NCBI GenBank assembly: GCA_051531975.1
Contig: JAOPTT010000017.1
Coordinates: 44,597 to 108,596 of the forward strand
DNA from: Spirochaetaceae bacterium
GTDB taxonomy: Bacteria > Spirochaetota > Spirochaetia > DSM-2461
Direction: 5' to 3'
DNA: 64,000 bases
The notes beneath the pieces were generated by a model, which worked only from the letters and a program-made list of their open reading frames with translations, was not told the DNA's origin and did no database searches. Shown one piece after another: positions 44,311 through 64,000 of this stretch. Both the position numbers and the translations under genes were made by a program. The number at the start of each line of letters is the position of its first letter. The stretch's first letter is position 1.

Positions 44311-45309
44311 TTATGGCAATGTCGAGAGTATCTTGGAAATTAGTTTTATACTATCTTTTTTCATATTAAGTGATAATGGGAAAAGTAGAGTTCTATTACT
44401 CAAAGATTTTGCATTTGAACACTTTAAATTATTAATATTGTTGCAGATACATCCCTCATATCCTTTAATAGTTTCTACACCCTGACTTTTACAATATTTT
44501 TGAACCTCTTTTAATGATTTTTTTAATACCACAGGAAAATAATTGTATGAATTACTTTCACTGTTATCAAATGTATAATAACCAGATTTTAATGTTGAAT
44601 CTTTATAGATTTCAATTATGGGATACCTTTTATCAAAAAAAATGTTTAAGTCAGATATTTGGGAATTCAAAAAAGAAGCGTTTAATCCAGACAAACATAT
44701 ATCTGGTCGTTTTTTCAAACGATTATCTAGTATACCAGAGAGTTCTTTTTTATTATGACTAATTAAAGCTCCACCCATAGAAGATAGTATATTTTCATCT
44801 TCAAAAGATATTATTGTATATGGACTGTTTCCTGTAATAGTTTCATTTTCAGAATCTCTTCCAATACCTGGAAGAAGAACTTCTAAAGTAGGAACATCAA
44901 TTTCGCTTAACCCATCTATATCCGGTTTAATACAGTTAGAAAAAGTTGAAATTATAAGTATTGTATTCTCTGTAATATTATCTGTAATAGTTTTTATTTC
45001 TGGTAAACCACTCTCGGGTGCAACATCCACAACAACTGGAACAAAACCACAATTAATAATTGTTTCATAGAAATAATATGGAGAAAGAGCTGAAAGAATA
45101 ATTTCACCCTTGGAGTTATCTGAAAATGTATTCAAGATTTCTATTAAGGCATGTTCTACCCCTCTATAAAAATGGATGTATTCATGATCAGTTATTTTTT
45201 TAAATGATCTACTCAGCTCACCTATATAATCAACATTAGTATCGACTAAATAAGTTAAAACTGAGTCCATCTCTTTTCTTCTAACATATGTGCTATTTAT
45301 TGGTATCAA
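44311..45309 (-). CDS. DegT/DnrJ/EryC1/StrS aminotransferase-fold protein (degenerate)
   Basis: G..PVVVDV, SF......GGAL and TLLFPL match the family scaffold; the catalytic Lys is absent. Confidence 0.7.
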   Translation of the reverse strand: MIPINSTYVRRKEMDSVLTYLVDTNVDYIGELSRSFKKITDHEYIHFYRGVEHALIEILNTFSDNSKGEIILSALSPYYFYETIINCGFVPVVVDVAPESGLPEIKTITDNITENTILIISTFSNCIKPDIDGLSEIDVPTLEVLLPGIGRDSENETITGNSPYTIISFEDENILSSMGGALISHNKKELSGILDNRLKKRPDICLSGLNASFLNSQISDLNIFFDKRYPIIEIYKDSTLKSGYYTFDNSESNSYNYFPVVLKKSLKEVQKYCKSQGVETIKGYEGCICNNINNLKCSNAKSLSNRTLLFPLSLNMKKDSIKLISKILSTLP

Positions 45310-59830: not shown

Positions 59831-61267
59831 CTATTTTATTAGTGGTGCCCATGAAGTTTGAGCAGCAGGTGTTTTATCTTTTAAAATAATACGTCTATTT
59901 CGACAACTAATTATTTCTTCTTTATATCTTTTATCATCTATAATGTTAACTTGTTCGTTGGGATCAGATTTTAAATCATATAATTCTTCTGTGATGTTTA
60001 TAAAATCATTAAAATATATAATGTACTTAAAGTTATCAGTTTGGATCATCTCCCATTCGTTATTAAATTCTGTAAAACTAAAATCTCTGATACTTTCTTT
60101 CTGTTCTTTAATTAATGGTAATAATGAGATGCATGGAATTATATTGTTGAATGCTGGCCAATCTTTGCTTAAAGAATGAATAGGATTTAGACCGGCGATA
60201 TCTAATATGGTTGCAGTAAAATCTATTATTTCAATAGGAGAGCTATTAACAATTTTATTTAAATAATCGGGATGTCTAATTGCAGCTGGTACTGTACAGG
60301 ATTGTTTCCATGGAACCATTTTTTCCATTCTTCCATGGTCTCCCAACATATCCCCATGATCCGATGTGAAAAGTATTACAGTATCTTTTAATAAATCTTT
60401 CTTTTCTAAAATGTGGAATATTTTACCAATTTGGTCATCCACCAACTTAACCATGGCTTTTGCAGATCTTCTTTGTTTATACAACTTATCTTTTATATCA
60501 TCAGTAAGAATTTCACCATTATATAGAATAAAATCATCTTTCTCTTCATGTGGAATAAGGTCTAAATACTCTTTAGGTGGATCGTATGGTTTATGTGGGC
60601 TGCAGAATGAGCCATATATAAAAAATGGTCTGCTTTTAGGTGCATGTTGTATTGTTTCAACAATTTTATCCCCTATTATAACATCTACATAATCCTCAGT
60701 TCTAAATGGCCAGTATTCCGGTTCTTTTTTTAAATCTTTAGCATATTTGCTATTTTGTCCTGCGGACTCTACAAAATCTCTATAACTATCTAATTTTCCT
60801 TTTTTATCCAGATAGGCACAATAGTCACAGTAATTTTTAGTTGCTAACTGTTTTCCTGAACTCTCCCATATAACATCGAAACCATAATCTTTAATGTCAT
60901 CTTTTATTGTATTTAGTGGAATACCCTTCCCTCTTTTTGTATTCCAATCCCATGTTTGAAGAAAATGGAATTTCCCAATACCTGCTGTAAAATAACCCTT
61001 CTTCTGTAGAGCTTTCGTATAGGTTGGAATTTGTCTACTTAGATCTCCAGACATGGCAAGGGTTCCAATCTGATGTGGATATCTACCGGAAAGAAGTGCT
61101 GTTCTAGCTGGTGTACAAACCGGGTTTACCGTCTGGCAATTAGTGAATCCAATAGATTCAGCAATTCTATCAATATTTGGAGTTTTAAAATTAGATTTTC
61201 CACTATAACCAACATAATCTAATCTTTGCTGATCTGTCATGATAAAAACTATATTCTTTAATTTCAT
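59831..61267 (-). CDS. Formylglycine-dependent sulfatase
   Basis: MTDQ, PVCTPAR..LLSG, IGKFH, PHKP, TSDHG. Confidence 0.94.
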   Translation of the reverse strand: MKLKNIVFIMTDQQRLDYVGYSGKSNFKTPNIDRIAESIGFTNCQTVNPVCTPARTALLSGRYPHQIGTLAMSGDLSRQIPTYTKALQKKGYFTAGIGKFHFLQTWDWNTKRGKGIPLNTIKDDIKDYGFDVIWESSGKQLATKNYCDYCAYLDKKGKLDSYRDFVESAGQNSKYAKDLKKEPEYWPFRTEDYVDVIIGDKIVETIQHAPKSRPFFIYGSFCSPHKPYDPPKEYLDLIPHEEKDDFILYNGEILTDDIKDKLYKQRRSAKAMVKLVDDQIGKIFHILEKKDLLKDTVILFTSDHGDMLGDHGRMEKMVPWKQSCTVPAAIRHPDYLNKIVNSSPIEIIDFTATILDIAGLNPIHSLSKDWPAFNNIIPCISLLPLIKEQKESIRDFSFTEFNNEWEMIQTDNFKYIIYFNDFINITEELYDLKSDPNEQVNIIDDKRYKEEIISCRNRRIILKDKTPAAQTSWAPLIK

Positions 61268-61274
61268 ATACTAA

Positions 61275-61302
61275 ACAATATCATATTTGAAACTATTGTC
61301 AA
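61275..61302 (-). promoter_or_regulatory. Sigma-70-type promoter of the sulfatase-sulfatase-GH3-IclR operon
   Basis: TTGACA-N16-TATTGT with TGn; the -10 box lies 7 nt before the ATG. Confidence 0.5.
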
Positions 61303-61542
61303 TATTTTACCTGCTTTCATTATAATAATTATATATTTTATAGCTAAGCAACTACTCGGTAATACGTTTTAATGGAATCATAATACGTTTTTTTTATCGT
61401 TAAAATGACTGTTTTTACTTATTTGCCAATAATATAAAATATAATTCATCATTTTAAAACAATATGATAAATAAGTGTTTTATTATGGGATCATATAACA
61501 CATCCAGCAAGACAAGACTATCCGTGAATGATAAGATAACCG

Positions 61543-61923
61543 ATGCCTAAAAGAATTCACAAAGAACTTACTAAAATCAAATACTCAGATGGCGAAACTG
61601 TTGGTCAAAGGATAACTGAAATACGAAAAGTACGAGGTTATACTCAAGTTGAACTTGCAGAAAAAATTGGTATTGCACGTGATTTACTTTCCAGTTACGA
61701 ATTAGGTAGAGTTCGGATTTATGACGAAATGATCTACAGGCTAGCCCTAATTCTTGAAGTATCTACAGACAGACTCCTTGGCTTTGAAAAAAGAGAGGAA
61801 GTTGCAGAAAGTGTCAGTCTCAGATATACCAGAAGAATAAAACAAATAGAAACACTCCCTGAGCATAAGATAAGAATGATATTAAAAATGATAGATGATT
61901 CTATCAAGGCCAACAAAGAATAA
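61543..61923 (+). CDS. XRE-family HTH transcriptional regulator
   Basis: GQRI...RK.RGYTQVELAEKIGI.....S.YE.G, and L.VSTD.LLG. Confidence 0.9.
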   Translation: MPKRIHKELTKIKYSDGETVGQRITEIRKVRGYTQVELAEKIGIARDLLSSYELGRVRIYDEMIYRLALILEVSTDRLLGFEKREEVAESVSLRYTRRIKQIETLPEHKIRMILKMIDDSIKANKE

Positions 61924-62313
61924 GTATCTTCAAACGAATCATAAAGACAACATTTAGAGGTATTTGTAATAATCATACTGGCTTAATAAATTCCTTACAA
62001 AGATTTTTGTTTATCAGATAGCCCACAGCATCAATTAAGGATGCCTCCTACAAATTATTTTCATGAGTATTATCTAAAATATCAATAGAAAGTATATAAA
62101 CCTTTATTATCTTAGATTTGAAATCAAAATACCATCTTTCATATGGATTCAGACTTACTTTACATCTAATTGTTAATAAACCTATTCTAAAGTCTCTTTT
62201 TGGAATACAAACTAATAATAAATTTTATTTCTCTATATATAATTTAAATAACATAATGTAAACAGGGTTGTTTTTTTTACTCTTCTATTTGTAATTAATA
62301 TAATTTTAAGGAT

Positions 62314-62592
62314 TCAATCCTCAACCTCTTTTAGCCGATTATTAAAGCATTTTTTTGCATAAAGGACTTCCTCTGATAATTTTAAATAGGCAACCTTTAA
62401 AGAATTCAGATTCACCTCTGCATTACCTTTTAAGCAAATATCCCTTAATTGGTAAACATTCTTTCCCTCAAAAAACAGTTCACAAATAGTAACTTTTCCT
62501 ATCTGTAATACTTCTATTTTTTCTAGAATACAAGTGTTAATATAATAAAAACAAGCTTCATATATATCACAGGTGGTAATTATATTCTTCAT
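62314..62592 (-). CDS. Small hypothetical protein, phage/mobile-element-like (DUF5659-like by eye)
   Basis: GGAG RBS before ATG 62592; T.DIYEA.FY...F.G...VNL..LK.AY pattern. The family call is tentative. Confidence 0.45.
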   Translation of the reverse strand: MKNIITTCDIYEACFYYINTCILEKIEVLQIGKVTICELFFEGKNVYQLRDICLKGNAEVNLNSLKVAYLKLSEEVLYAKKCFNNRLKEVED

Positions 62593-63323
62593 ATTATCTC
62601 CAATAGTATGAAATCTATTATTTGACAAAAAAATTTAATTAAAATGTCAGAAAAGGTTTATTATTTCTTTTAAAATTTCAGGTATTGTTATTATGGTACA
62701 GTTATCCATTCATAAAAAAATATTTTATGAATCCTTAAATCGTTTGTTTTTTTTAATAATACTTCAGTAAATTATATATTTTACAATACAGATAAAAAGT
62801 TTATTTTTTTATTATGTGTCTATAATACACATTAATCAAGTGTAAAATCCTAATAAAAAACTCAATATTTACCTTTATTATTCTATTTGTCTAATAATCA
62901 TTGATGATTAATACTTCTCATGAAGCTTAGAATGGAAGAATATCCCCTGCGTGAGTAGTTATAGTTTTAAATTTAATGATTAACTTAATCCATTCAGCCA
63001 CTATAACCTATCTTATTGCTCATTCTCAGTCAATTAACCTCAATTAATGTCATTTTTTTAATACAACAACATGAATTACTAAACTGTTCAACAACTTCTA
63101 AATTCAATTTTATATATATATCTTATAATTATTACGCTACCTTTAGAGCCAAAAATCAATCATAACTGAATATATGAATATCTTTCTGGGAATTACGACA
63201 TTTATTTTACTAGGTAATTTTTCAAATATAATAAATATTTGAAATGTATAGAGGATAAAAATAAAAGTGATATTTAAAACAGATTGGACGATTCCTTCTT
63301 TTAGCGAAATCGTTATAAACAAA

Positions 63324-63348
63324 AAAACCAACCCTATAGGTTGGTTTT
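63324..63348. terminator. Perfect inverted repeat, bidirectional rho-independent terminator
   Basis: AAAACCAACC-ctata-GGTTGGTTTT with A/T tails on both sides. Confidence 0.75.
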
Positions 63349-63381
63349 ATATGTGTATTCAATTTCATTTATTACTTTTGA

Positions 63382-63453
63382 GAGACAATTCCTTCTTTTG
63401 TCGGTGGGACGATCCCTCCTTTTGTCGGTGGGACGATCCCTCCTTTTGTCGGA
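63382..63453. repeat. 24-bp tandem repeat x3 (gggacgatccctccttttgtcggt)
   Basis: Units at 63382, 63406 and 63430. A diverged fourth copy with the same 3' flank (aatcgttataaa) lies at 63285-63326. Confidence 0.92.
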
Positions 63454-63457
63454 ATCG

Positions 63458-64000
63458 TTATAAATAAAAAAGTCTAGTTTATTAACCCCAACATCATACT
63501 TTCCGATGAGGAAATGTATAACTATCTAAATGTATTAGTTTAAATATTCGAAGATAACACCTATGGCAACGATGGTGCTGTGTTCGTACTTAGATTAGTT
63601 TGAATTGTTTATATCAGAGTCGAATTATAAAATAAAAAAGTCTAGTTTAATAACCCCAACGCAAAGCAATTTGCCTTGGGCCTACTATCCCACTAACATC
63701 AAACTTCTCGGAGAGAGAATGTTTGACTATCTTAATGCTTAGTTTAAACTTTCGAAGATAACACCTATGCCAACGATGGTGCTGCGTTAGTGCTTAGATG
63801 AATTCAACTTGATTGAATTAGATACGATTATAAAATAAAAAGTCTAGTTTAATAACCCTAACATCAAACTTCTCGGAGAGAGAATGTTTGACTATCTTAA
63901 TGCTTAGTTTAAACTTTCGAAGATAACACATATGGTACCCGATGGTACGGAGTTAGTGCTAGGATGAATTAGAATTGCTAATATCAGAAACGAATTATAA
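63458..64000. repeat. Non-coding tandem array of ~167-bp structured units (at least 3 copies, continues past the window)
   Basis: Units start at ttataa 63458, 63625, 63828 and 63995 (periods 167, 203, 167). Copies 2 and 3 are identical over 72 bp (63693-63764 = 63858-63929). Confidence 0.95.

Follow-up and report, generated by a model that had tools for sequence, protein, structure and literature searches.

The window analyzed here is a stretch of 64,000 nucleotides (positions 44597–108596 of contig C17 in the assembly under study, hereafter G000), and its last base, 64000, is also the end of the contig. Flank genes in the window encode a GH3 hydrolase, two sulfatases, an XRE regulator, and an uncharacterized 104-aa ORF, and positions 63458–64000 hold three repeat units and the beginning of a fourth (about 167 or 203 nt long and 70–99% alike). 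In BLAST comparisons between units, units 1 and 3 aligned at 78.6% identity over 168 nt, units 2 and 3 at 86% over 136 nt, and units 1 and 2 at 79% over 129 nt. A repeat search of the window found direct-repeat families spaced 166 and 204 nt apart across the array, among them a 77-nt stretch with 99% identity in units 2 and 3. Both analyses agree with an earlier note on this DNA, which had described an array with a period of about 167 nt at these positions, and two of its further statements were confirmed: the units contain no noteworthy ORF (only frames of 31–45 aa were listed), and the motif TAGTTTA, read from the sequence, occurs twice in each. Tandem Repeats Finder picked up solely an adjacent 24-nt repeat, at 63384–63452, and not the array itself.

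For the feature list, we set unit boundaries at the recurring 5S-like end CTAGAC, with all units assigned to the minus strand (the rRNA sense; see below). Unit 1 (63472–63639, minus strand; 168 nt in rRNA sense) is the last before the distal trailer and was delimited by the CTAGAC split, the repeat families, and the unit alignment; its 3′ side, at the low coordinates, ends with the pseudo-5S end CTAGAC followed by a T-run. Unit 2 (63640–63841, minus strand; 202 nt), delimited by a 5S match, the CTAGAC split, and the alignment, contains a 36-nt insert, such that the 203-nt unit equals a 167-nt unit plus this insert, itself a copy of 5S nt 81–98 with a small hairpin. Unit 3 (63842–64000, minus strand) runs from the CTAGAC split to the contig end, which cuts it at a length of at least 159 nt.

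Searches for known classes of non-coding sequence came back empty. Rfam gave no match at E ≤ 1 over 61000–64000, and the earlier dismissal of a CRISPR array holds up, as the units are 167–203 nt long, homologous over their whole length, and match no Rfam CRISPR family. A tRNA/tmRNA scan of the array loci found none, and two exact unit stretches compared with metagenome contigs yielded 0 matches each. A scan of genome contigs with the neighboring sulfatase recovered only distant relatives, spread horizontally. Within G000, the same repeat is present at six contig ends (C17, C1, C21, C22, C16, and C27), all of which, in the window orientation, run from unique flank through array to a contig break with no assembled exit from the array. 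Since the window ends where its contig ends, the array was cut by assembly and not by biology, and its context was hidden from the earlier note.

Position of the array relative to rRNA operons

With a relative's rRNA operon as query, the G000 assembly lacks 23S and most of 16S; its only rRNA sequences are a 428-bp part of 16S, on contig C28 (634 bp), and one solitary 5S (C22:5737–5845). The placement of the array comes from G001, a near-closed genome of the same genus in two contigs, where Rfam identified full 5S, 23S, and 16S genes directly adjoining homologous units. Besides one solitary 5S, G001 has seven 5S genes within operons, and its units lie on the rRNA strand between the 5S of 16S-23S-5S operons and the operon end or terminator, in the 3′ trailer. 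In rRNA sense, the operon 5S genes are followed by 0, 1, 2, 2, about 2, about 3, and 4 units, with a long terminator hairpin after the units in two operons. Since the G001 units stand behind 5S on the rRNA strand, rRNA sense corresponds to the minus strand of the window; judged from this comparison, the strand on which the earlier note described the array is the complement of the one likely to be transcribed.

Matches of flank proteins indicate synteny with G001 rRNA operon ends at three of the six G000 array ends: C27 with L024 (59% protein identity), C16 with L026 (53–71%), and C1 with the neighborhood of L018 (88%). For the remaining three flanks, too little G001 flank sequence was compared to judge synteny. 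Public runs comprised one DNA run with the locus and one small metatranscriptome from the same sample; no RNA run was listed as covering the locus. No contig of the DNA run bridges the G000 array (Logan contigs fragment inside it), so the link between array and 5S in G000 is drawn from homology to G001 and from the synteny of three of six flanks. Taken together, this homology and synteny, the rRNA genes missing from the assembly, and a minus-strand terminator suggest that the G000 array is an rRNA trailer. Where the earlier note had expected an enzyme just beyond base 64000, G001 homology and synteny point instead to more units and then 5S, 23S, and 16S genes on the minus strand.

Other genera of the family carry no such units; G006 and G019 have a hairpin terminator after 5S, and G012 has a T-run directly after 5S. 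In G012 and the genus under study, the T-run follows 5S helix I with no separate hairpin, and termination may therefore make use of the 5S stem itself. A conserved TTATAA comes after the T-run downstream of 5S, or of its terminator, throughout the family (TTTTTTTATTTATAA; G012 L030, L034, and L037; G006/G019 L033–L046; C22:5846–5860). A solitary 5S lies away from operons in each of three genus genomes (C22:5737–5845 in G000, L028 in G001, and L032 in G002), in each case with a variant helix I, which reads GTCAGTG...GCTGGC in G000 and G002. One G001 operon (L017, 6230–6330) has no tRNA gene in its 16S-23S spacer according to ARAGORN, and an apparent tRNA 3′ remnant (GGTTCGATTCC...) stands there just before a bulged hairpin; the other operons carry tRNA-Ile and tRNA-Ala in the spacer.

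5S-derived pieces and a covarying hairpin

The units are mosaics of rRNA-operon sequence. In rRNA sense, each starts with a T-run and TTATAA, like the sequence after a real 5S, and contains the 5S 3′ end with its T-run in direct orientation, together with an inverted copy of 5S nt ~69–88 and an inverted bulged hairpin. The inverted 5S copies lie on the plus strand, that is, antisense within an rRNA-sense transcript. They are clear in unit 2 (63774–63792, plus strand; 5S nt 69–88, 18/19 positions, score 33 vs. a shuffle maximum of 22–25) and unit 3 (63939–63958, plus strand; nt 68–88, 18/20, score 30 vs. 20–21), and degraded in unit 1 (63570–63587, plus strand; nt 69–87, 15/18), where a score of 21 is borderline against shuffles. 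The insert of unit 2 holds a sense copy of 5S nt 81–98 (63681–63697, minus strand; 16/17 identical, score 29 vs. a shuffle maximum of 23); in 167-nt units, this sense 3′-end piece is reduced to a few bases at either end.

The same derivation is evident in G001, where eight of nine units have exact matches of 14–29 nt to 5S nt 82/85–98/110 (two of them extending to the final base of 5S) and the ninth a match of 9 nt, compared with a shuffle maximum of 10. The units are nevertheless not 5S genes: RF00001 (gathering score 38 bits) had 0 matches at E ≤ 1 over 61000–64000, and its only match in G000 is C22:5737–5845, vs. 5S fragments of about 17–29 nt in the units. Considered by themselves, the location behind an rRNA operon and the origin from 5S are conclusions that we hold with high confidence. 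Three unit-like fragments also occur within 48 kb of contig C2, away from assembled rRNA genes (C2:482478–482517, C2:487710–487749, and C2:530149–530188), each with a single or double hairpin and 5S-like flanks of the GTTAGGGATAGCA type; these may be what is left of an earlier rRNA operon site or may reflect dispersal.

The bulged hairpin consists of 5 bp, an invariant bulged A, and another 5 bp, closed by a loop of 4–5 nt. We aligned 18 of 20 distinct instances from G000 and G001, leaving out one with a large loop insertion (L023:732–771) and one degenerate remnant (L024:900–939). The structure is paired in 94.9% of alignment cells, compared with 32–54% when slid, changes on both sides occur in 7 of 11 pairs, and the covariation score was reached by 0 of 500 shuffles; G-U pairs (2 vs. 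2 between strands) favor neither orientation. A covariance model built from the alignment (R1) scores the copies in the window at 54.7 bits (63486–63525), 60.9 bits (63691–63730), and 59.9 bits (63856–63895), all on the minus strand. The covariation upholds the earlier description of a non-coding array with conserved nucleic-acid structure, and of the three variable hairpins per unit proposed there the bulged one is strongly supported, whereas support is weak for a small GGTAC-type hairpin and for a third that only unit 2 possesses. Run over the 38 genomes of the family (the same 38 represent the order in the collection searched), R1 found matches in G000 and G001 alone; the genus has two other members there, both drafts of 71–81% completeness, so a blank result in them does not indicate absence.

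Copies of the hairpin are also found outside the trailers. In G001, it occurs in the rRNA leader and the 16S-23S spacer, and in G000 it lies behind tRNA genes on C13 and C25 (in tandem on C25) and ~90 nt behind a tRNA-like match on C2. At the leader, spacer, and tRNA sites, its orientation relative to the RNA gene is opposite to that of the trailer copies, from which it follows that trailer units carry the hairpin and 5S nt 69–88 as an inverted block between direct copies of the 5S end. Consistent with this, the window plus strand matches the G001 spacer in rRNA sense over ~44 nt including flanks (score 33, vs. 23 in the other orientation). At the tRNA sites, the C13 hairpin follows its gene directly (L070, 573–612), the tandem hairpins on C25 are degenerate and stand after two identical tRNAs (L071, C25:14000–15200, 355–700), and C2 holds a six-copy array of a 28-nt hairpin ending in TTATAAAC and a terminator (L069, C2:161400–162600, about 440–575). 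Loops of the hairpins behind tRNA genes read mostly GANNA in RNA-gene sense.

Mean identity between units is 81% within G001 (up to 100% between operons), 70% within G000, and 60% between genomes. At the level of sequence comparison, these values demonstrate that units are homogenized within genomes, i.e., concerted evolution, and together with the differing number of units per operon the pattern fits unequal recombination and gene conversion among operons.

Proposed transcription of the trailer and alternative readings

The account that we favor, with moderate confidence when taken whole, is that the array is a transcribed rRNA-operon trailer made of operon-derived mosaics amplified by recombination, with no partner enzyme. 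Along the minus strand, the order would be the 16S-23S-5S genes (past base 64000), the repeat units, three 24-nt hairpin repeats, and a terminator at 63348–63324. Units would originate by inverted duplication or template switch at the 5S end and multiply by unequal recombination between repeated copies of that end, and gene conversion would maintain their likeness among six or more operons. They would be transcribed as part of the rRNA primary transcript when RNA polymerase passes the T-run after 5S, and then be removed by processing. No dedicated enzyme would be needed, and any role would most likely be local (as a spacer or a buffer for processing or termination) and not trans-acting. Some observations sit uneasily with this account: the native sense of the hairpin is the window plus strand, which counts against it, and the invariant bulge and compensatory changes argue for selection on the hairpin and fit badly with a purely passive trailer. 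Whole-unit folding energy is also unremarkable (z of −3.3 to +0.5 on both strands vs. shuffles).

A strong intrinsic terminator (63324–63348, minus strand; 11-bp stem, T-run, and TTTATAA) is the sole canonical terminator in 62600–64000, and it probably marks the end of the rRNA operon transcript. There are no tandem canonical terminators in the units, where the sole candidate is a 5-bp stem without a T-run, and a scan of the G001 array likewise gave none. Also against the account, the stretch from the last unit to a downstream gene on the same strand lacks a terminator in several G001 arrays; termination may therefore occur at the T-runs, and little transcription would then reach the distal units.

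Preceding the terminator is the distal trailer (63384–63455, minus strand), three tandem 24-nt repeats recognized by repeat searches and folding, each of which carries ACAAAAGGAGG in rRNA sense (SD-like, with a GGA motif) in a hairpin loop. Repeat searches place a further copy of the 24-nt element just past the terminator (63287–63310, minus strand). Past the last unit, the sequence follows the same course as the trailer behind the solitary C22 5S, with a T-run, TTATAA, a hairpin, and CTCTCAA..TAATAA in that order; the hairpin position is filled by one hairpin on C22 and by the three repeats in the window. On the opposite strand, the element reads CCTCCTTTT (anti-SD). It occurs after 5S genes or trailers at four loci (the window, C22:5846–5890, and the array flanks on C1 and C27), in tandem at three of them, and a look-alike cluster of five copies lies between convergent genes at C6:352937–353063.

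It is possible, though distinctly less likely than the trailer account above, that the trailer yields functional sRNAs through read-through of the 5S T-run, at a level reporting rRNA transcription. Such products could be unit-length four-way-junction RNAs with an anti-5S segment, a CsrA-titrating RNA made of the GGA-loop hairpins at 63384–63455, or both. A study in E. coli provides a precedent, sRNAs located between the dual terminators of three rrn operons (PMC8144298), and the trailer here has the equivalent placement, preceded by the 5S T-run and closed by a strong terminator. A four-way junction can be folded from each of the six G000 units, its closing stem composed of inverted and direct 5S helix-IV pieces, and the bulged hairpin within them covaries; however, the junction stem hardly varies and so has no covariation support, and it is not common to the type-B units of G001. 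With the G000 fold, G001 units share only the bulged hairpin. A helix-I closure that would make a "mini-5S" was not found in the units, which lack the helix-I 5′ strand. For a CsrA-binding product, the distal trailer folds at z = −4.5 and offers five GGA motifs before the terminator, and G000 encodes CsrA (C16:84763–84918, 75 bits), but the GGA motifs are in part base-paired in the predicted fold. Two features of the units also speak against functional sRNAs, namely their variable number (0–4 per operon, with one G001 operon having none) and their fast divergence between species to 60% identity.

The orientation of the hairpin bears on a very unlikely reading in which the units act on the plus strand, transcribed towards 5S, either forming a roadblock or controlling rRNA 3′ processing as antisense RNA. 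A plus-strand RNA would present the hairpin in its native sense, with a GNNNA pentaloop that may resemble that of boxB, together with a sense 5S fragment. The match of hairpin and flank to the spacer is in this orientation, as is the GANNA reading of 13 of 18 loops in the alignment, yet the hairpin is near-palindromic, which makes the orientation signal small. Likewise, a TTGACT-16-TAAACT site recurs in units 2 and 3, but promoter-like sites are at the level of chance (9 found vs. 9.1 expected) and the array contains no plus-strand terminator.

Genomic islands pile up in tandem at tRNA genes, and each unit here is bounded by direct repeats of an RNA-gene 3′ end. The units might accordingly be pictured as recombination sites or miniature integrative elements whose insertion target is the 5S 3′ end; they would bring a replacement 5S end and accumulate in tandem. 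In G001, the terminators of two rRNA operons are directly adjoined by a 116-aa ORF (L027, 2176–2526, and L021, where the copy is degraded) that by eye resembles a tyrosine recombinase in its C-terminal catalytic half and is followed by small toxin-antitoxin-like ORFs; a truncated recombinase at two operon ends would suit such elements. No integrase, however, lies near any G000 array flank examined, the units have no ORF, distal array ends are truncated at differing points with no fixed att core, and the unit interiors are themselves pieces of rRNA operon. We consider this origin highly improbable, slightly more so than action on the plus strand.

Least probable of all is that the hairpins are REP/REPIN sequences spread by a RAYT transposase, with the array as a BIME-like cluster: small imperfect bulged palindromes do occur at gene 3′ ends in both orientations and sometimes in tandem, but no Y1_Tnp/RAYT (PF01797) was found in this 98.5% complete genome (a control search was positive in 6 of 14 reference genomes), and of only 15 perfect family hairpins genome-wide in G000, 11 are in rRNA trailers.

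Two further classes were rejected. An integron cassette or attC array has neither unit ORFs nor an integrase among the flank genes to recommend it, and a type III toxin-antitoxin locus (ToxI-like, with ~36-nt repeats upstream of a toxN-type gene) is at odds with units of 167–230 nt, the lack of an adjacent ORF, and the G001 array being followed by 5S rRNA and not a toxin gene. The mechanisms offered in the earlier note fared no better: no RT, nuclease, or toxin gene lies near what it took for a template, guide, or antitoxin array, and a set of ssDNA recombination sites is contradicted by the absence of cassettes, ORFs, and a flank integrase and by the 5S origin of the units. What survives of its interpretation is the structured non-coding array without an Rfam family.

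Relation to known rRNA trailers and significance

The closest published analogue of the trailer array is the set of RrA/RrB/RrF sRNAs of E. coli, located in the rrnA, rrnB, and rrnD trailers between dual terminators (Stenum et al. 2021, PMC8144298). That report describes them as read-through products with five GGA motifs that bind CsrA and Hfq in vitro (PMC8144298). As they are characterized there, RrA/B/F resemble the array in being non-coding, in lying between the first stop signal of the last rRNA gene and a second, strong terminator, in a read-through origin (predicted here), and in having GGA motifs, which here are in the distal part. Unlike RrA/B/F as so described, the array shows no sequence relation to them (no Rfam match) and consists of tandem 167–230-nt mosaics derived from 5S at 0–4 per operon.

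Duplicated material at the ends of bacterial rrn operons is familiar from tandem terminators and extra 5S genes, such as T1-T2 of E. coli rrnB and the second 5S gene of rrnD. The array shares with these a location at the operon 3′ end, and each of its units ends in a T-run, but the units are not whole 5S genes and have no canonical terminator hairpin. Inverted duplications can arise by template switching, as in Ripley-type models of rearrangement. Like template-switch rearrangements in rRNA operons, the units place antisense 5S material within the same operon; the difference is that here a short inverted block (~20 nt of 5S plus the spacer hairpin) is part of a tandemly amplified unit, across the operons of two species. 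Full-text literature searches turned up no report of arrays of 5S fragments downstream of bacterial rrn operons.

What looked like a novel RNA or recombination array resolves into rRNA-operon trailers that break short-read assemblies, and contig-end repeats should first be compared with rRNA operons before new systems are called. The array is a lineage-specific variant of rRNA trailer architecture, and the trailers remain unusual in combining tandem sense/antisense 5S mosaics with a covarying hairpin common to the rRNA leader, the spacer, and tRNA trailers, all homogenized among operons. A more speculative and, in our estimation, improbable extension is that rRNA operons of this genus co-transcribe structured RNAs behind 5S (an anti-5S segment covering helices IV/V, a mimic of the 5S 3′ end, and a GGA-hairpin module) whose targets would be 5S maturation, ribosome assembly, or CsrA (by titration), so that post-transcriptional control would be tied to growth rate. 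To our knowledge, no CsrA-sponge RNA is known in this lineage. If the units or the GGA-hairpin module were stable RNAs, the idea behind RrA/B/F, that of regulators wired to rRNA transcription, would extend to a distant lineage.
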